Below, piece by piece: positions 1 through 7,378 of a stretch of DNA of 9,735 bases. Position numbers and translations under genes: made by a program. How positions within the stretch are numbered: the first letter of the stretch is position 1; each line of letters opens with the position of its first letter. This DNA is from a virus (lineage: Duplodnaviria; Heunggongvirae; Uroviricota; Caudoviricetes), in the IMG/VR virus record IMGVR_UViG_2671180460_000011, positions 1 through 9,735 of that record. One strand, given 5' to 3'. The notes under the pieces are model-generated. The model saw nothing but the letters and a program-made list of their open reading frames with translations, was not told the DNA's origin and did no database searches.

Positions 1-252
1 TTACCATATTTCGTCACCCGCAGGGGTGGATTTACCCCAGACATCCTGCTCGCTAAGTTCCGCGGCGTTCATGTCACACTGTGCCAGCAGTTCATCAAGC
101 GAGTAGCGCCTGGAGATGGGTGTCAGAATCAGTTGGTTGTTGCTCACCTGCGCTTCCACGCTCTGCCCCGGCTGTAAGTTAAGTTCTTTCATTACGATAT
201 TGGGAATGACCATACCTGCACTGTTCCCCCATCTTTTTATGGTAATACGCAT
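1..252 (-). CDS. chpS: ChpS (ChpBI) antitoxin of the ChpB-ChpS toxin-antitoxin pair, MazE/AbrB-fold; host gene
   Basis: Translation MRITIKRWGNSAGMVIPNIVMKELNLQ...GDEIW (83 aa) matches my recollection of E. coli ChpS and resembles MazE. ATG at 250-252 (rc), GGAGG at 258-262 (rc) 5 nt upstream, stop at 1-3 (rc TAA). The ORF track's start at 258 is an in-frame GTG two codons upstream. Confidence 0.75.
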   Translation of the reverse strand: MRITIKRWGNSAGMVIPNIVMKELNLQPGQSVEAQVSNNQLILTPISRRYSLDELLAQCDMNAAELSEQDVWGKSTPAGDEIW

Positions 253-266
253 CTGCACCTCCTTAA

Positions 267-283
267 GTTATACAAAGTATAAC
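267..283. promoter_or_regulatory. Perfect 7-bp inverted repeat GTTATAC-AAA-GTATAAC just upstream of the chpS RBS; likely operator for TA autoregulation
   Basis: The palindrome is read directly from the sequence. Type II antitoxins of the MazE/ChpS family autoregulate through palindromes overlapping their promoter. Confidence 0.4.
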
Positions 284-457
284 TCACGGTGCTACAGGAA
301 ACGTTTTACCCCTGCACATTTGTGAACGCCAGCAGAGTTTTTTATGCGATTGCAGATATGGAAAGCGGCTCGGAGAGAAAAGCAAAAGATGGAAAAGTTA
401 CAAAAAAAAATCGCGAGATACATCGCATAAAACAACGCCACCCGAAGGTGACATGAA

Positions 458-480
458 GGAGGCCGAGCACACTGGCCTCC
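458..480 (+). other. GC-rich hairpin (GGAGGCC / 9-nt loop / GGCCTCC) in the host-prophage junction
   Basis: 7-bp perfect stem seen in sequence, followed on + by CTTTGATATAT (weak T-tract). Could be a host terminator remnant or part of the att region; function unknown. Confidence 0.3.
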
Positions 481-517
481 CTTTGATATATCAATTAGTT
501 ACATTAATACACATAGT

Positions 518-540
518 CTTAAGTGGGCTTATTTAGTCCT
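518..540. other. Putative attachment-site core (prophage end)
   Basis: The reverse complement reads AGGACTAAATAAGCCCACTTAAG. It shares AAATAAGCCC and TAAG with the P2 att core as I recall it (AAAAAATAAGCCCGTGTAAGGGAGATT, from memory and uncertain). It lies just downstream of the int stop, where P2 attP lies. Confidence 0.3.
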
Positions 541-543
541 ATT

Positions 544-1539
544 TTATGGGCAATATCTGGACAACTCAGCCACAGGATTAAAGCGCACAGCATCCTGTAG
601 ATAATCCGGTGCAAAATGGGCATAAGTCATCGTCTGCTGAATAGTGCTATGTCCAAGTATTCTCTGCAAAGTGATGATATTCCCACCATTAATCATGAAG
701 TGAGTGGCAAAGGTATGCCGTAAAACATGTATCGACTGCCCTTCAGGAAGATCGGGCCTCACCTTTCTGATAGCAGCTCTGACAGCTGCATAACTTGGAT
801 AAATTAAACGACCAGTGGCCTTTGTTTTAATCATGCACTCCAGTTCTGACGATATAGGTATAACGCGACGCTTCCCATTTTTGGTTTCCATAAAAATGAC
901 TTTGCCGCTAATAACATGCTCCCCCTTGATATTTGCAACCTCACTCCATCTTCCACCTGTTGCCAGACACAACAAGACTGCTTTTAATTCATCACCAGAT
1001 AACAACTCCAGTAATCGTGGAATATCTTCATGATACAAATAAGCCATTTCAGGCTGTTTGATATTAAGTTTTTTCACATCATGAAACGGATTAGCCCCAG
1101 AATATTCCTCTGCGTCAATTAGTTTTGTGAAAAAACCACTCATCATTGCGCAATAACGATTAACCGTGGATTGTTTTATTCCGCGGTTAAGCAACAATAA
1201 CCGATAATTAATTATGTTCTTACGAGTAAGTTGGTCACTGCGTGTAACATTAATACTTTCAAGATCACTAATGACCGCAGAAATACGCACTCGCTCCATC
1301 GAACCGTAAGGATGATTTTTACCGTGATACAACCACCAACAATCCAGCAACTCCCTCAGCGAGCGCCGTTCTGTTGGCTTATCAACCCAGTCTTTGTCGT
1401 GGTAATGCTGCAATACATGACGCTCATACAAAACAGCCTCACCACGAGTATCAAATCGCCGCCTGAATCTCTTTCCTTCTGATCCAGCAGGCCGCACGTC
1501 CACACAAAATTTGCCATTAGCGAGCTTCTTAATCGACAT
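544..1539 (-). CDS. int: Tyrosine recombinase / integrase, P2 Int family
   Basis: 331 aa from MSIKKLANGKFCVDVRPAGSEGKRFRRRF. The C-terminal HVLRHTFATHFMINGGNIITLQRILGHSTIQQTMTYAHFAPDYLQDAV nearly matches the P2 Int catalytic region (HxLRH box, catalytic Tyr in YAHF). ATG at 1537-1539 (rc) with GGAGGG 7 nt upstream. The ORF track's extra 12 N-terminal codons lack an RBS. Confidence 0.9.
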   Translation of the reverse strand: MSIKKLANGKFCVDVRPAGSEGKRFRRRFDTRGEAVLYERHVLQHYHDKDWVDKPTERRSLRELLDCWWLYHGKNHPYGSMERVRISAVISDLESINVTRSDQLTRKNIINYRLLLLNRGIKQSTVNRYCAMMSGFFTKLIDAEEYSGANPFHDVKKLNIKQPEMAYLYHEDIPRLLELLSGDELKAVLLCLATGGRWSEVANIKGEHVISGKVIFMETKNGKRRVIPISSELECMIKTKATGRLIYPSYAAVRAAIRKVRPDLPEGQSIHVLRHTFATHFMINGGNIITLQRILGHSTIQQTMTYAHFAPDYLQDAVRFNPVAELSRYCP

Positions 1540-1605
1540 AAGGAAGCCCTCCAATGAAAACATCATCTTGATCACTGCTCTGGGAAATAAATGCCTGGTG
1601 AACCG

Positions 1606-1899
1606 TTAACCAGTTTTCTTGCCGGAGCGGGATGATTCCACTTCGTCTTGCCCAATGTGTGCGAGAGCCGGTACAACCTGCCCGGCCTTGGGTTCAACTT
1701 CATCAAACAAAAACCAGTCGCGATATTTAGAAAATCTCGGGTGCTTGAAAAGCTTGATAGTGATCTCAAGGCCAGGAAGGTTACGACCATACTCATAACT
1801 GGTCAGAGCAGAATAAGAAATCCCAATCATATCAGCGAATTCCCGCTGAGTGAGATCTTCAGATTTACGCATGACGCGAATTTTTTGAGGAATGTCCAT
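1606..1899 (-). CDS. C: Immunity repressor, P2 C-type (short HTH repressor)
   Basis: 97 aa MDIPQKIRVMRKSEDLTQREFADMIGISYSALTSYEYGRN...PALAHIGQDEVESSRSGKKTG aligns along its length with P2 C as recalled (IVLMRKSE...YGTLSYYESGR...PALAHFGQNE...SGQKTG). ATG at 1897-1899 (rc), AGGAG 8 nt upstream. Same strand as and upstream of int, as in the P2 C-int transcript. Confidence 0.85.
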   Translation of the reverse strand: MDIPQKIRVMRKSEDLTQREFADMIGISYSALTSYEYGRNLPGLEITIKLFKHPRFSKYRDWFLFDEVEPKAGQVVPALAHIGQDEVESSRSGKKTG

Positions 1900-2013
1900 T
1901 TGACAAACTCCTACACATGTGTAGATTAATACCACATATGAACAGCAAACAAATGTTCTAAGTGGTTCCAACTAGTGCCAATTAGAAAAAGCACCAATGG
2001 CGGAGGATATCAG
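1900..2013. promoter_or_regulatory. Lysis-lysogeny switch region: candidate rightward early promoter and operator palindrome
   Basis: TTGACA at 1900-1905 (+), TAGATT at 1922-1927 (16-bp spacer). A 14-bp perfect palindrome CTACACATGTGTAG at 1911-1924 sits between these hexamers. The leftward Pc promoter is expected further right but I could not pin it confidently. Confidence 0.45.
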
Positions 2014-2439
2014 ATGCAAGAAAGCACTCAAAACGCGCCTGAGTCACTTTGCGGAACACGATGCGCTCACCTGTCAGAAATGCCAGAAGGGGAGCATCAA
2101 AAAACAGAACGCAAAGCACGTGAACGTGAAGAAATTCGACTTTCAGAAAATCCCTCGCATCTCCTGTCAAAAGAAGGATTTGCGCTGTATATCGGCAAAA
2201 CGGTTAGCGCCATTGTGAGCATGGCTAAAGCAGGGAAATTGCCAGCCGTGTATATGGCAGACCCTCTTAGGCCAGGAGGAAACGCTGAACTCTACATCAA
2301 CAGAAAAGCGTGGGATGAAGCATGTGATCGCTTGATCGAAAACGCTCCGCAGGAATGGCATGACTGGGAAAACCGCCTGTTTTTATTTAAGCCGACACAT
2401 AGCGAACGAAGCAGAACTAAAAAAGCGAGGGCCGCATGA
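2014..2439 (+). CDS. cox: Cox-like excisionase / early-promoter regulator with an unusual ~50-aa N-terminal extension
   Basis: The C-terminal ~85 aa (LSKEGFALYIGKTVSAIVSMAKAGKLPAVYMADP...AWDEACDRLIENAPQEWHDW) parallels P2 Cox (EFAKLIGKSTGAVRRMIDKGKLPVIDMTDP...AWNNGLKLAYESRPKEIRDGW). ATG at 2014 with GGAGGA at 2002-2007. Alternative in-frame start at ATG 2080 has no SD. Confidence 0.65.
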   Translation: MQESTQNAPESLCGTRCAHLSEMPEGEHQKTERKAREREEIRLSENPSHLLSKEGFALYIGKTVSAIVSMAKAGKLPAVYMADPLRPGGNAELYINRKAWDEACDRLIENAPQEWHDWENRLFLFKPTHSERSRTKKARAA

Positions 2440-2543
2440 TTGCTTTATTGTTAACACATTATTTTCGTCGCCGTTATTTCAAACACGGGCAGTTAGTGGG
2501 CTATATCACACTGCCTGAATGAGTTAAAAGAGGTAACAGTAGA

Positions 2544-2951
2544 ATGAATCACAAAAATAAAGCGCTACTGGAACGACTGGAAACCCTGAAAAACGAAAAG
2601 CCACACCAGAAGCTTTTGCTGGTTTTTCCGGGCAAACCACAGGTTGAAATCAGCATTGACTACCACGAATTACACAGAACGTTCGCTGACCTGATGGCAT
2701 TTAAATCAAAGCTTCAGAATGGCGAAGATTTGAAAAATGTTACCCTGCATCCTGATGATGAATACGGTCATTTTTGTCGAGATGGTGTCAAAGAAACGAT
2801 TGGAATGATTTTAGAACCAATATACGGCGTTGCGCTCCGTTTCCCCGCCAAAGAAATCTTTGAGCTTTATCGACAAATTTTAAGCAGTGACAACATGGTT
2901 ATTGAGGTCGGAAATGTGCCAGAGAAAATCTCCGGCACGGGAGTTAAATAA
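2544..2951 (+). CDS. Hypothetical protein (135 aa), AT-rich moron-like gene
   Basis: Complete ORF, ATG 2544 with AAAGAGG at 2527-2533. No family recognised. Visibly AT-richer than flanking phage genes. Confidence 0.55.
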   Translation: MNHKNKALLERLETLKNEKPHQKLLLVFPGKPQVEISIDYHELHRTFADLMAFKSKLQNGEDLKNVTLHPDDEYGHFCRDGVKETIGMILEPIYGVALRFPAKEIFELYRQILSSDNMVIEVGNVPEKISGTGVK

Positions 2952-3134
2952 TCACTCAGGGAAAGTCCATGTACTTGCCTGAGGATATTTTTCCAACGTG
3001 AGCTTACGCACTTCGTGCATAAGCTTACGAATGGTATTTGATGGCTCTCCTTTATTCGGAGGATTAACCGGCGCTTTCTCTAATACAGAAATTGCCGCAT
3101 TTAGCGCATCAATAACCTTTTTATCATAGGACAT
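2952..3134 (-). CDS. Hypothetical small protein (60 aa), convergent with and abutting the 135-aa gene
   Basis: ATG at 3132-3134 (rc) with AAGGA 7 nt upstream on the minus strand. Its stop (2952-2954) is immediately adjacent to the stop of the + gene (2949-2951). No family recognised. Confidence 0.4.
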   Translation of the reverse strand: MSYDKKVIDALNAAISVLEKAPVNPPNKGEPSNTIRKLMHEVRKLTLEKYPQASTWTFPE

Positions 3135-3276
3135 ATTTTATTCCTTTGTGGTTGGTTGAACACGCGCCCTTTACAGCCCCTTCAAGACTGTGGGCGGTGG
3201 AAAAATACCACAAAACCATGCGCCGGGCATGGCTAAAACCCGGCACAAATTCGCAACAGCAGCAGGATATTTTTGT

Positions 3277-3627
3277 ATGAAGCAACGACGTAATTCTTCA
3301 CAGCAGCGATTCCGCAACGGGACGGAACGCCACGCTAACCGCTTCGCTACCAGTGCATCACGTAGCAGCTCTCGCTACAGCCTGAACGAAACGCACGCAA
3401 CACCAGACGGACACGCTGTAAAACAAATCGGCGAGCATACCTGGCTGATTGAGAAAGCTGGAATCGTGGTCCACAAATGCCCGCGCAATCCGTTTACCGG
3501 AAACCGCATTTTTGCTCTGAGCAGCGGCGACAATCAGTTCGGGCAGGATTTCACATTATACGAAGCGCTTCGCACGGTTGATCGTCTGCTGCGTGGACAG
3601 AGTTTTATTAAACAGGCTGATTTATAA
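3277..3627 (+). CDS. Hypothetical phage early protein (116 aa; basic N-terminus)
   Basis: ORF open from 3190 (GTG); preferred start ATG 3277 with AGGAT at 3264-3268. Alternative ATG at 3229 has no SD. No family recognised. Confidence 0.5.
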   Translation: MKQRRNSSQQRFRNGTERHANRFATSASRSSSRYSLNETHATPDGHAVKQIGEHTWLIEKAGIVVHKCPRNPFTGNRIFALSSGDNQFGQDFTLYEALRTVDRLLRGQSFIKQADL

Positions 3628-3637
3628 CAGGTGCTTT

Positions 3638-3925
3638 ATGACTAAAGACCATACTCAAGGTGTATTTATCCGCTTTATTGATTTTCGCGGTGAACTGTTA
3701 TTACGCGCATCCGCTATTGATGGAGTGGCTCCGGCGGGGAAAAACGGAGCCGCCGAAGCCACTTACGTTTATCTGAACGGCACGCGACTGATCGTGGAAC
3801 TTCCGTACCAGACCGTACGCGAAATCATTAGCGAAGCTGAAAAGGCTCGTCAGGTTAATGGCGATAAACCCTATATCGAAATTATCTGTATGGATTCAGA
3901 AGCTGAAATCCAGAAGGCAGATTAA
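3638..3925 (+). CDS. Hypothetical phage early protein (95 aa)
   Basis: ATG 3638, 10 nt after the upstream stop, with a weak SD (AGGTG 3629-3633). Coding-like composition. No family recognised. Confidence 0.5.
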   Translation: MTKDHTQGVFIRFIDFRGELLLRASAIDGVAPAGKNGAAEATYVYLNGTRLIVELPYQTVREIISEAEKARQVNGDKPYIEIICMDSEAEIQKAD

Positions 3926-3935
3926 AGGGTGTGCG

Positions 3936-4178
3936 ATGGACAAAGAATATAAAGCTCTTGTCAACAAAGCACTTGAGCGTTTTTATTTTCGCTTAAACAC
4001 ATCAGGGGCCCAGGCAGAACACGCAGCCCATGATTCATTAGCGAGGGCAATCAGAAGCCTTTATGACGTGGCCTTTTACGCTGACGATTTGGATGCGATT
4101 AACGAACTTTCCGAACTCGTCTGCGCTGCAGAATGCGGGGATCGCATTGAACCATATAAACTGGGGAATATCGCATGA
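3936..4178 (+). CDS. Hypothetical phage early protein (80 aa)
   Basis: ATG 3936 with AAGGG at 3925-3929. Its stop TGA 4176-4178 overlaps the ATG 4175 of the next peptide gene (ATGA). Confidence 0.5.
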   Translation: MDKEYKALVNKALERFYFRLNTSGAQAEHAAHDSLARAIRSLYDVAFYADDLDAINELSELVCAAECGDRIEPYKLGNIA

Positions 4179-4312
4179 GTATATTTATGTCATGGATTGT
4201 TCTGATTATTTCGGTGGCCTGCGCAATCGGGATTATGCGAATTATTCATTCAGTGAAAAAGATTGAGCGTTTTTTTCTGACGAATAACAGCACAAATAAA
4301 ACACCAGATTAA
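4175..4312 (+). CDS. Small single-pass membrane peptide (45 aa), MSIFMSWIVLIISVACAIGIMRIIHSVKKIERFFLTNNSTNKTPD; absent from the ORF track
   Basis: Hand-translated codon by codon. ATG 4175 with GGGGA at 4163-4167 and ATGA overlap with the upstream stop. A ~19-residue hydrophobic stretch is followed by a basic tail (RIIHSVKKIER). Stop TAA 4310-4312. Confidence 0.4.
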   Translation: MSIFMSWIVLIISVACAIGIMRIIHSVKKIERFFLTNNSTNKTPD

Positions 4313-4380
4313 ATAAGAAAACGTGAAAACCATCCGAATTAGCGGAGGCATTCACACACGTAAATAATGGAGATAGAAAA

Positions 4381-4791
4381 ATGAACGCAAAAGAAAAAGG
4401 CATTGTAACTGCGCTAAAAAATATATCGAAGACCGCAAACAGAGCCATTCAGGATGCAACAAATGCAGGAATGATTGGGCCTGCCACCACAGCCATGATG
4501 ATAGCAAGAGCAACCGCCGAAGCAGCCGAAATCATCGAAAAACAGGATGCTGAACTAACGGTTCTCAAAACACAACCAACCACCAGACTGAATTTATCTG
4601 ACATTGGACACCTTATTCATATTATTGGCTCGGAGCTACAGCAATACATCATTATCGCCGAATTGCAGGACAAATACCTGATTACCCCTTACCCCATAAG
4701 AGAGTCAGAAGTTCTGACAAATCTCCGCCTGATAGAACGCACTCAGGTCGCATTCATTGATGGCACGCAACGTGCCGTATTTAACGCATAG
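4381..4791 (+). CDS. Hypothetical protein (136 aa), Ala/Thr-rich N-terminal half; AT-rich gene with its own RBS
   Basis: ATG 4381 with GGAGA at 4369-4373, preceded by a 68-bp AT-rich spacer. No family recognised. Confidence 0.55.
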   Translation: MNAKEKGIVTALKNISKTANRAIQDATNAGMIGPATTAMMIARATAEAAEIIEKQDAELTVLKTQPTTRLNLSDIGHLIHIIGSELQQYIIIAELQDKYLITPYPIRESEVLTNLRLIERTQVAFIDGTQRAVFNA

Positions 4792-4814
4792 GGCTATTGG
4801 ACAAAGAGAGCGTA

Positions 4815-5018
4815 ATGGCAATTAAGCATTTTCCCGTCGTTCGCTTTACCTCCAGAGGGCGCGAATACGAGGTCGACGAACGCCTGATTACCACTATCGA
4901 CAAACACCGTTCAGAAAAAGATGCACATCACATCTATCTCACTGACGGCACTTACTTCTGCGCCACCAACGTGGTGCAGGTGAATCTTATCAGACTGGTA
5001 CAGGAGTCACGCAGATGA
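4815..5018 (+). CDS. Hypothetical small protein (67 aa)
   Basis: ATG 4815 (MAIKHFPVVRF...) with AAGAGAG upstream. The ORF track start at 4797 is TTG. Stop TGA 5016-5018 overlaps the next start (ATGA). Confidence 0.5.
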   Translation: MAIKHFPVVRFTSRGREYEVDERLITTIDKHRSEKDAHHIYLTDGTYFCATNVVQVNLIRLVQESRR

Positions 5019-5260
5019 CCATTCTGGACTACATCGCCGCCAATCCGGGTTGTAGCGGTGGAGAAATCGCCGCAGCACTGAATACCCCAACCACAGCCAT
5101 TAATGCGGAGTTACGCCGACTCTGGCGCGACGGCTTAGTCATCAGAGAAGAACGCAAAACAGGCGGTCGGTTCTCTTACCAGGTAAACCCGATGCCGTTC
5201 GGGTGTGGCAACCCACTTACTCACATGTTTAACCAGCTACTGCAGGAAGCCAGAGCATGA
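5015..5260 (+). CDS. Small winged-helix DNA-binding protein (81 aa)
   Basis: ILDYIAANPGCSGGEIAAALNTPTTAINAELRRLWRDGLVIREERKTGGRFSY has the look of a MarR/PadR-like wHTH with a basic wing. ATG 5015 with CAGGAG at 5001-5006; ATGA coupling at both ends. Confidence 0.55.
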   Translation: MTILDYIAANPGCSGGEIAAALNTPTTAINAELRRLWRDGLVIREERKTGGRFSYQVNPMPFGCGNPLTHMFNQLLQEARA

Positions 5261-5567: not shown

Positions 5568-5771
5568 ATGAACAAAAAGACCTGGTTTCGCGCATACATG
5601 TGGGCGCTGGTATGCGTCCTCGTCTCTCTCATTCTGTATGCAGGACTACTCCCCCGAATGATTTCATCAGACAGCTCCTTCCTGGTATTGCTGGGCATTT
5701 TCATTGCCATGCTGTACCCGGCAGGCGTTGTTCGCCTTTTCAGTAAGTACATCAAGGAAATCAAACAATGA
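5568..5771 (+). CDS. Small integral membrane protein, two predicted TM helices (67 aa)
   Basis: ATG 5568 with AAAGGA at 5555-5560. Two hydrophobic segments (WALVCVLVSLILYAGLL and FLVLLGIFIAMLYPAGVV) separated by a short polar loop. Stop TGA 5769-5771 overlaps the ATG 5768 of the SPFH gene. Confidence 0.6.
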   Translation: MNKKTWFRAYMWALVCVLVSLILYAGLLPRMISSDSSFLVLLGIFIAMLYPAGVVRLFSKYIKEIKQ

Positions 5772-6598
5772 AGAAATTCAAACTCTTTCAGATTCTCCCG
5801 CTTTTTGCCGCCATCCTGCTGGTTGGTTGCGATCGCGTTGAGCCAGGTAATGTGGGCATCAAAGTCAACAAACTGGGCGACGACAAAGGCGTCGGCGAAG
5901 TGGTTGGCGTTGGCCGCTACTGGACTGGCTGGAATACCGAGGTTTACATCTTCCCGACCTTCAAACAAATGAAGACCTACGATGAGCCGTTCAGCTTCCA
6001 GATGAGTGACGGCACAACCATCGGCTATCACATCGGTGTGGCCTACAAGGTTGATCCATCCAAAGTTACTACAGTGTTTCAGACCTACCGCAAAGGCGTG
6101 GATGACATTACCGACACTGACCTGCGCCAGAAGATCGCCGATGCACTCAACCGACTGGCCAGCAAAATGACCACCGACAAATTTATCGACGGCGGGAAAT
6201 CTGAACTACTGGATGCAGCTCTTAAAGACATTCAGGAGGAAATGACACCCATCGGTATTCAGGTAATGAGCCTCTCATATGTGGGTAAGCCGGAGTACCC
6301 GTCAACCGTTATCGACAGCATTAATGCCAAAGTCACGGCAAACCAGAAAACCCTGCAACGCGAACAGGAAGTCAAGCAACGTGAAGCAGAAGCCAACATG
6401 TTGCGCGCAGAAGCTGCCGGACAGGCTGATGCCATTCGCACAAAAGCCCAGGCTGAAGCCGACGCCATTCGTTTGCGTGGTGAAGCTCTGCGCCAGAATC
6501 CCGGTGTTATGGAGCTGGAAGCGATTAACAAATGGAACGGCACGCTACCGCAATACATGACCAGTAACACCGCTGTTCCGTTTGTTCCGGTGAAGTAA
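5768..6598 (+). CDS. SPFH/band-7 (stomatin/HflK/HflC/prohibitin-like) domain lipoprotein, predicted inner-membrane anchored (276 aa)
   Basis: The N-terminus MKKFKLFQILPLFAAILLVGC-D has a signal peptide and lipobox LVGC (Cys21), with Asp at +2, the classical inner-membrane retention signal. The body has SPFH-like composition and a C-terminal Ala/Glu/Gln/Arg-rich coiled-coil (QREQEVKQREAEANMLRAEAAGQADAIRTKAQAEADAIRLRGEAL) typical of band-7 proteins. Confidence 0.8.
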   Translation: MKKFKLFQILPLFAAILLVGCDRVEPGNVGIKVNKLGDDKGVGEVVGVGRYWTGWNTEVYIFPTFKQMKTYDEPFSFQMSDGTTIGYHIGVAYKVDPSKVTTVFQTYRKGVDDITDTDLRQKIADALNRLASKMTTDKFIDGGKSELLDAALKDIQEEMTPIGIQVMSLSYVGKPEYPSTVIDSINAKVTANQKTLQREQEVKQREAEANMLRAEAAGQADAIRTKAQAEADAIRLRGEALRQNPGVMELEAINKWNGTLPQYMTSNTAVPFVPVK

Positions 6599-6812: not shown

Positions 6813-6951
6813 TCCATGTCACTGTCAGAAGATTAACCCATGTACACACAAAAAAACCGCTTGCCATGCCGTAATCAGTCAGGTTACATTTCCGCTGCAC
6901 CTCATAAAACGGGTGCCGGGTTTCGCAGCCTGCTGACTAGCAAAGCGCACA

Positions 6952-6971
6952 ACCGCGCCAGCGGTTTTTTT
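6952..6971 (+). terminator. Candidate Rho-independent terminator ending the long early operon
   Basis: ACCGC-GCCA-GCGGT hairpin (5-bp stem, 4-nt loop) immediately followed by T7 (6965-6971). The stem is short, so strength is uncertain. Confidence 0.45.
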
Positions 6972-7150
6972 GTGCGTACCGTATCGCCACGTCTTTTTCG
7001 CACACGAATTATGGTGGGGCGTATGGGGCCGACTTCGGTCGGGCCGGGTTCTTTGCTAGCCGGTACTGCGAACCTCGTACGTCTCGCCACCCACAGTTTC
7101 GCAGCTCTGGATGGTGAGTTTTCACAACTTACTAGCAAAGAGGCCACACC

Positions 7151-7378
7151 ATGGCAAACCGCAAACAGCGCGCATACGCTGCGCGTCGTCACATCCAGAC
7201 TGAAATCGATCGCAGACTCACCCGCGCTGCACACATCGCCTTTATCATGCAATCCAACACATTGCACAGACTCAACAGCACTATTTCAGCCGACTACTGC
7301 GCCGCTGTATTCAGCTATCTGGCGGAAGACCTCCTGTCTCTTCAGGATCTCATCCAGCAGCAAAACAAACTCCATTAA
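7151..7378 (+). CDS. Hypothetical phage protein (75 aa)
   Basis: ATG 7151 with AAGAGG at 7138-7143. No family recognised. Confidence 0.5.
   Translation: MANRKQRAYAARRHIQTEIDRRLTRAAHIAFIMQSNTLHRLNSTISADYCAAVFSYLAEDLLSLQDLIQQQNKLH

Follow-up and report, generated by a model that had tools for sequence, protein, structure and literature searches.

A polymorphic early-operon slot in P88-like prophages of Escherichia coli is filled by an accessory gene predicted to encode a helical hairpin joined to a small beta-barrel

The window analysed here, that is, the whole stretch of 9,735 nucleotides, carries a gene for a 136-aa protein within a rightward operon (Table 1). Using Pfam and PHROGs we detected int, C, Cox, DUF4761, DUF4754, MarR and Ead/Ea22 domains in the window, which was syntenic with the P88-group phages and with Citrobacter phage Shae_phiSM (Peduoviridae, genus Xuanwuvirus). 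Because this gene order is that of sequenced P88-group phages, the window is the left arm of a P88-like prophage (Xuanwuvirus, P2-family) of E. coli. An E. coli protein, P0001, was identical to the 136-aa protein, and the best match in a complete genome had 96.6% identity. After Cox, the operon continues with DUF4761, an unnamed 95-aa gene (orf95), DUF4754, a hydrophobic peptide and the 136-aa gene. Beyond orf67 it holds a MarR-type winged-helix gene, an Ead/Ea22-like gene and a pair of genes for a membrane protein and an SPFH lipoprotein. In close relatives the replication endonuclease comes next, about 3.3 kb downstream of the slot occupied by the 136-aa gene.

Table 1. Positions of genes and sequence features in the window, with the evidence for each.
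Feature	Position	Strand	Evidence or remark
Tyrosine integrase (int)	544-1575	minus	
C, HTH repressor of P2 C type	1606-1905	minus	
Probable early promoter Pe, TTGACA-16-TAGATT	1900-1927	plus	10/12 consensus match
Cox-family gene, opening the rightward operon	1975-2439	plus	PF10743, E 6e-28
orf135	2544-2951	plus	no Pfam, PHROG, PADLOC or NCBIfam match
60-aa ORF, antisense, convergent with orf135	2952-3134	minus	
DUF4754	3936-4178		rightward operon
Hydrophobic membrane peptide, 45 aa here, 37 aa canonical	4175-4312	plus	ATGA overlap with DUF4754 stop
Conserved non-coding backbone spacer	4313-4360	plus	alignments, every slot state
Exchanged cassette: own Shine-Dalgarno, 136-aa CDS and a few bases past the stop	4361-4798	plus	alignment of occupied, alternative and empty loci
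Shine-Dalgarno GGAG	4369-4372	plus	8 nt 5' of ATG; conserved in A-type cassettes
136-aa gene, ATG start	4381-4791	plus	
Codons 1-65, predicted antiparallel helical hairpin (helices 3-28, 32-64)	4381-4575	plus	AF2 pLDDT 92-95
Codons 66-77, predicted flexible linker	4576-4611	plus	pLDDT 66-75
Codons 78-127, predicted five-stranded small beta-barrel, SH3/KOW/Tudor type	4612-4761	plus	
Codons 128-136 and stop, conserved C-terminal tail ..QRAVFNA	4762-4791	plus	low confidence
orf67, 67 aa, conserved right anchor of the slot	4815-5018	plus	phrog_3459
Membrane protein coupled to SPFH/Band-7 lipoprotein	5568-6598		phrog_1130; PF01145, E 2e-30, phrog_200
IsrK	6897-6971		Rfam, 65.5 bits, above gathering score
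C4 antisense RNA	7007-7094		Rfam, 79.9 bits, above gathering score
Derepression-protein-like gene	7151-7378		PF25738, weak

Other parts of the window were also variable. A second slot of about 840 bp lies between cox and DUF4761 (2440-3276), two genes that are directly adjacent in phage P88 and that in other relatives have different genes between them; this interval looks more moron-like, owing to its opposite-strand gene. The pair of phrog_1130 and SPFH genes was found in only some related loci, which makes the interval from Ead to the derepression gene a third place of variable cargo. The region with IsrK, C4 and the derepression-like gene looks like a c4/antirepressor-style module of P1/P7 type in a P2-family prophage.

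The 136-aa ORF is genuinely coding, as supported by its full-length match to phrog_9338, by its roughly 870 copies in complete E. coli genomes and by a dN/dS of 0.45. A sequence-only reading of this DNA had described it as a 136-aa gene with its own ribosome-binding site, placed after a 68-bp AT-rich spacer among tightly coupled neighbours. All of these features were found as described: the ORF starts with ATG, has a Shine-Dalgarno sequence and comes after a 68-bp gap (4313-4380, GC 0.37) that follows the 45-aa peptide ORF, and the neighbours are coupled by ATGA overlaps (4175-4178, 5015-5018 and 5257-5260). The proposal that the gene is visibly AT-rich held in part. With a GC content of 0.448 and a GC3 of 0.44 it has more AT than the genes on its downstream side, whose GC3 is 0.55-0.63, yet it does not differ in this way from those upstream: int, C, orf135, orf95 and DUF4754 have GC contents of 0.42-0.47 and GC3 values of 0.41-0.44. 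The composition profile displayed a single step near position 4800, with GC 0.448 over 1-4800 and 0.541 beyond, and no AT-rich island centred on the gene.

The same reading had regarded the spacer as belonging to the gene, which the alignments contradicted: the spacer was kept in all 84 related loci, gene-less ones included, and conservation from the stop of the peptide up to about 4360 did not depend on whether the 136-aa gene, another gene or orf67 came next. The 68-bp length of the gap in the window results from a T-run that is 1 nt shorter, which lengthens the peptide ORF from 37 to 45 aa; canonically the gap measures about 86-93 nt (86 nt in P88 and about 93 nt elsewhere), and the T-run at 4272-4312 looks like a homopolymer length polymorphism. 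In P88 (gp07) and most relatives the peptide has 37 aa and ends in ..FF(T/S)(D/G)E, with the long form recurring in several loci. The spacer also contains a small, conserved stem-loop (4323-4355) with a UCCGC-loop-GCGGA core that overlaps a GGAGG at 4344-4348 and precedes any slot occupant. It folded with an MFE of -12.8 kcal/mol (z -2.3), with a single pair displaying compensatory change and with no T-run, and an Rfam search of the spacer gave 0 matches. We rejected a mini-ORF of 14 codons in the spacer (GTG at 4323), the start of which varies between GTG, CTG, ATG and GTA among loci and which has no Shine-Dalgarno sequence.

A further suggestion, that the 136-aa gene and the preceding membrane peptide form a two-component module, did not survive the comparison. 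The peptide, annotated as 'membrane protein' in P88 (gp07), was present in 84/84 loci, the 27 empty ones included, at 71-100% identity. As it is translationally coupled to DUF4754 and found in every slot state, we consider it a backbone gene.

For the comparison of slot states we used 84 loci, made up of 80 viral contigs anchored on DUF4754, three annotated loci and the window, with slot classes set by the number of nucleotides that separate the DUF4754 stop from the orf67 start. The slot held a gene of the 136-aa type in 49 loci, was empty in 27 and carried unrelated genes in eight. Empty loci had distances of 198-200 nt and consisted of peptide and spacer only. Distances of 639-650 or 952 nt corresponded to a 136-138-aa gene (47 loci), with L013 having extra sequence downstream of it. 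Two loci (643 and 916 nt) had a 122-aa variant, one of them together with an additional 109-aa gene. The unrelated occupants were an 87-aa helical protein of phrog_21900 (464-465 nt, three loci) and a 105-aa helical protein of phrog_26764 (510 nt, five loci). A profile comparison with hhalign gave a marginal similarity of the 136-aa protein's hairpin to the 87-aa occupant (E 0.0023, probability 12.6%) and none to the 105-aa occupant, and we claim homology in neither case. In L020 and L021 a 138-aa allele was frameshifted and split into ORFs of 128 and 63 aa, which shows that the gene undergoes natural pseudogenisation.

The edges of the exchanged segment could be seen directly, with ...CGCATACG joined in empty loci to CCAAGGAGGCGTAATG of orf67. 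Compared with these loci, the segment extends from about 4361 to about 4798, its left edge lying about 20 nt before the ATG. Empty and occupied backbones were at least 95-96% identical over 750 bp to the left and 600 bp to the right (for example, L082 versus L050 and L069 versus L041), and such near-identical flanks imply gain or loss within one backbone rather than a difference between distant lineages. The state of the slot was associated with ParM and the derepression gene, so that presence and absence partly follow sub-lineages. We did not retain the idea that tip type (see below) or slot state is functionally tied to other prophage genes, as only these signals of linkage and lineage, for ParM and the derepression gene, were seen.

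Among individual phages, the gene was present in Shae_phiSM, 705R2, 569R5 and one ST131 P88-like phage. The slot was empty in the type phage P88 and in P884B11, PhiR44_2, Chuche and 520873, that is, in five of the nine distinct P88-like phages that have both anchors intact. P88 has been described (PMC5285337) as a coliphage that was induced and is able to lyse new hosts, so that the 136-aa gene is not required to make a phage functional. Of 5426 complete E. coli genomes, 1396 (about 26%) carried the backbone segment 3936-4360, at 1562 places in total, and 831 carried the gene, at 870 places, which means that about 56% of the backbone copies are occupied. At least one Salmonella locus was also found in a pattern scan of genome contigs.

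These distributions bear on whether the gene could belong to the conserved core of P2/186-like phages as an early or replication gene. It lies within the early operon ahead of the gene for the replication endonuclease and is syntenic in many prophages, which would agree with such a role, but it was missing from P88 and four P88-like phages, and 27 of the 84 loci had an empty slot. A tblastn search of 50,697 phage records gave four matches, all on a P88-type backbone, with none in P2, in 186 or beyond the P88 group. We consider a core function exceedingly improbable, refuted as it is by functional phages from which the gene is naturally deleted. The 136-aa gene is instead an accessory, dispensable gene that fills a polymorphic slot of about one gene in the early operon, between peptide-plus-spacer and orf67. 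The suggestion that it has been exchanged separately from its neighbours was thereby supported, with the gene present or absent between flanks of at least 95% identity and replaced by unrelated genes in some loci.

We searched for relatives of the protein at several levels. It matched phrog_9338 of PHROGs v4 over its full length (residues 1-136 against positions 1-138 of the 138-position profile, E 9.7e-58), which indicates membership of this catalogued family; the family has no annotation and thus its membership is uninformative on function. Pfam gave only two sub-threshold, unrelated matches (E at least 0.02), searches of NCBIfam and of PDB sequences and profiles gave nothing significant, and the best match in PADLOC-DB 2.0 (Hp2, E 0.02, 11.5 bits) was not significant. 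Neither an antitoxin nor a DNA-binding domain was detected with Pfam or in the PDB/profile searches, and none of the homologues found had a known function. When 1.84 billion cluster representatives were searched with a profile, 27 proteins were returned, several of which were frameshift or chimeric products, and in two word-indexed searches the named family members came solely from Escherichia, Shigella, Salmonella and Citrobacter. All contexts examined were this one slot, about 93 nt downstream of the 37-aa peptide, also for the most divergent, 124-aa variants. In the literature on P88-group phages and their accessory regions we found nothing on the 136-aa gene.

Sequence evolution of the gene was estimated with pairwise Nei-Gojobori comparisons over unique alleles. 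The 136-aa gene had a dN of 0.19 and a dN/dS of 0.45, as compared to 0.03-0.07 and 0.10-0.27 for the peptide, DUF4754, orf95, orf67 and MarR genes, a non-synonymous rate 3-6 times that of its neighbours. Codons 13-45 (4417-4515) were the most divergent (dN 0.40, dN/dS 0.58) and the barrel region was less so (dN 0.10, dN/dS 0.35). The sequences of codons 13-45 fell into four discrete types, or five clusters at a stricter threshold, and these tip types were paired with differing C-terminal types among the alleles, pointing to mosaic recombination inside the gene. Most blastn matches in E. coli genomes started to align only at nucleotides 107-121 of the gene, which is consistent with a recombining variable tip. 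The dN/dS values stayed below 1 even in the tip and thus do not demonstrate positive selection; the rapid change could reflect relaxed constraint together with recombination.

To view this variation in the context of the protein we used an AlphaFold2 model built with 29 homologues. The N-terminal half had been described as rich in Ala and Thr and probably helical, and both statements agreed with our results, 22 of its 65 residues being Ala or Thr and the predicted helices having pLDDT values above 90. As the turn of the predicted hairpin falls at residues 29-31, the hypervariable codons 13-45 would form its distal tip and the conserved ends its base. When the C-terminal 71 residues were modelled alone, a five-stranded barrel was predicted, with a core pLDDT above 90. 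The C-terminal tail was missing from the variants of 122 and 124 aa. Three E. albertii alleles (P0062, P0063 and P0064; 142-156 aa) had one to three extra 7-aa repeats (DTGLNLS or DTRLNLP) within the linker, suggesting that this segment is a flexible tether between hairpin and barrel. Reading the sequence, we saw no evident signal peptide or transmembrane segment and a net charge near neutral. The protein is predicted to be soluble and to have two domains, a helical hairpin and an SH3/KOW-like barrel, joined by a linker. A Foldseek comparison with BFVD gave no convincing viral analogue (TM 0.49 or lower).

Small barrels of this kind raise the option of a modulator of transcription or translation. 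C-terminal domains of NusG and RfaH have RNA polymerase, Rho or ribosomal protein S10 as docking partners, and the barrel of the 136-aa protein could likewise dock on one of these and tune the passage from early to late development. The predicted barrel shares its five-stranded fold with the KOW domains of Spt5, NusG and RfaH, but it has no KOW motif and no match to Pfam PF00467, its fusion partner is a helical hairpin and not an NGN domain, and its similarity to Tudor, chromo and SH3 domains is just as great. The argument concerns similarity at the level of fold, which is not specific, and we regard this role as very unlikely.

With regards to expression, we scanned the window for promoter-like sites. 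Pe was the only such site on the plus strand placed to drive the operon with the 136-aa gene, and its position between C and cox, which fits a P2-type switch, makes it the probable early promoter. No promoter-like site was found on the plus strand within 4100-4400, in a scan that was a simple match to the sigma-70 consensus, which weak or activator-dependent promoters could escape. Nor was there a terminator-like site at 4790-4815, between the gene and orf67. Overall counts of promoter- and terminator-like sites were not above shuffled expectation. One promoter-like site inside the gene (4598-4625) was treated as chance, its -10 element being unconserved in other alleles. A promoter of its own, as implied by the sequence-only reading, was therefore not borne out: the consensus scan was empty directly upstream of the gene, within 4100-4400, and an exchanged segment that begins about 20 nt before the ATG is too short to contain one. 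With a cassette that brings a Shine-Dalgarno sequence alone, and neither promoter nor terminator, the 136-aa gene would be co-transcribed from Pe with the early operon. In that case it would stay off in the lysogen and be produced early after induction or infection.

The proposal that the gene is a separately acquired moron accordingly needs to be divided. A moron, in the sense of Hendrix and colleagues, is reportedly an extra gene with its own promoter and terminator that is expressed from the prophage. An extra, exchanged gene that occurs in some genomes and is cleanly missing from close relatives (27 of 84 loci, and P88) is indeed what we found. The evidence from composition and spacer, the implied own promoter and the classical definition of a moron do not apply, as flanking promoters and terminators were not seen in the consensus scan, as there is no contrast in composition with the upstream backbone, and as the gene is embedded in a lytic early operon with which it is probably co-expressed. 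A related possibility is that the gene is a classical moron serving superinfection exclusion or defence, with a promoter in the AT-rich spacer that is active in the repressed prophage. The region upstream of the gene is AT-rich, and presence/absence polymorphism with fast evolution would suit defence as well as counter-defence. The spacer is backbone, however, and precedes orf67 in empty loci, so a promoter there was not imported with the gene; the composition of the gene equals that of the upstream genes, the plus-strand scan and the search for a terminator past the gene were negative, and PADLOC gave no match. Hotspots of P2-like prophages do carry defence genes (PMC9122126), but the known one lies elsewhere, between gpA and gpQ next to cos, with defence systems of 1-5 kb (PMC9122126). 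It resembles the slot in being a small locus of high turnover between two conserved phage genes, whereas the slot is located in the early operon upstream of gpA, spans from 0 to about 1 kb and holds no recognisable defence domains. A moron or defence role of this kind thus seems unlikely to us.

In a sister lineage (L086, 5001-6006; L087, L088 and L091-L095) the slot contained three genes, for a 124-aa hairpin variant, a 93-aa ORF with a ParE_like toxin domain (PF24732, E 2e-10) and a protein of 108-118 aa that belongs to the phrog_16975 family and is 51% identical to the extra gene of L016. These three genes are a possible toxin-antitoxin-like cargo. A protein of the 136-aa type could then be viewed as an orphan antitoxin that neutralises host toxin-antitoxin systems of abortive infection, given that the 124-aa variant lay 14 nt upstream of the ParE_like ORF in every locus checked. 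The window has no ParE-like gene, however, and towards the C terminus the 124-aa and 136-aa proteins could barely be aligned. Translational coupling also links the ParE-like ORF to the gene that follows it, and this gene may be the ORF's true partner. In difference to a type II antitoxin, the 136-aa gene is followed by a gene, orf67, that in 27 loci occurs without it, so that orf67 is not a toxin dependent on the hairpin gene. Together with the lack of a detected antitoxin or DNA-binding domain, this makes an antitoxin function, in our view, highly doubtful.

Our leading reading, a tentative one to which we give somewhat less than an even chance, is that the 136-aa protein is an early-lytic, protein-binding factor used in counter-defence, host takeover or phage competition. 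A small, soluble protein with a fold suited to protein interaction, encoded by a dispensable, patchy and fast-evolving gene with recombining tips and probably made early, fits best with a binder of a host or rival protein. The accessory status of the gene was observed in the loci and the fold comes from the model, whereas the role itself we infer. The protein would act as an adaptor or inhibitor that binds a protein target of the host or of a rival element, where the conserved barrel and hairpin base may provide a constant function and the variable tip the target specificity.

The 136-aa gene has parallels among known early-region genes of temperate phages. The 186 genes fil and dhr, and genes of the lambda exo-xis region such as ea22, are non-essential early-region genes, with functions in the inhibition of division or replication. 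Like the 136-aa gene they are small, dispensable and located in the interval that separates the lysis-lysogeny switch from the replication gene, and they are early, as the 136-aa gene would be. An Ead/Ea22-like gene is found downstream in the window itself, after orf67 and the MarR-type gene. No relationship in sequence or fold was found between the 136-aa protein and these proteins, however, and the functional parallel is one of analogy.

Phage early operons are full of accessory ORFans, and nothing found here contradicts current understanding. A dispensable, fast-changing early gene with recombining 'specificity' types does have the profile expected of a factor in conflicts between phage and host or between phages, and the gene is a candidate of modest interest for conflict-related screening. 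For that purpose the slot provides a small natural collection of alleles, comprising the empty state, four tip types, three unrelated occupants and the variant linked to a ParE-like gene, in prophages of which somewhat more than half of the copies in complete E. coli genomes carry an allele of the gene. A more far-reaching and rather improbable version of the binding-factor reading would make phrog_9338 a new family of early phage inhibitors, having a swappable tip directed against defence or rival proteins and a barrel that serves as effector or anchor, and the slot a counter-defence or competition hotspot. If that were true, a previously unrecognised hotspot would be present in the P2-family prophages of about a quarter of E. 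coli genomes.
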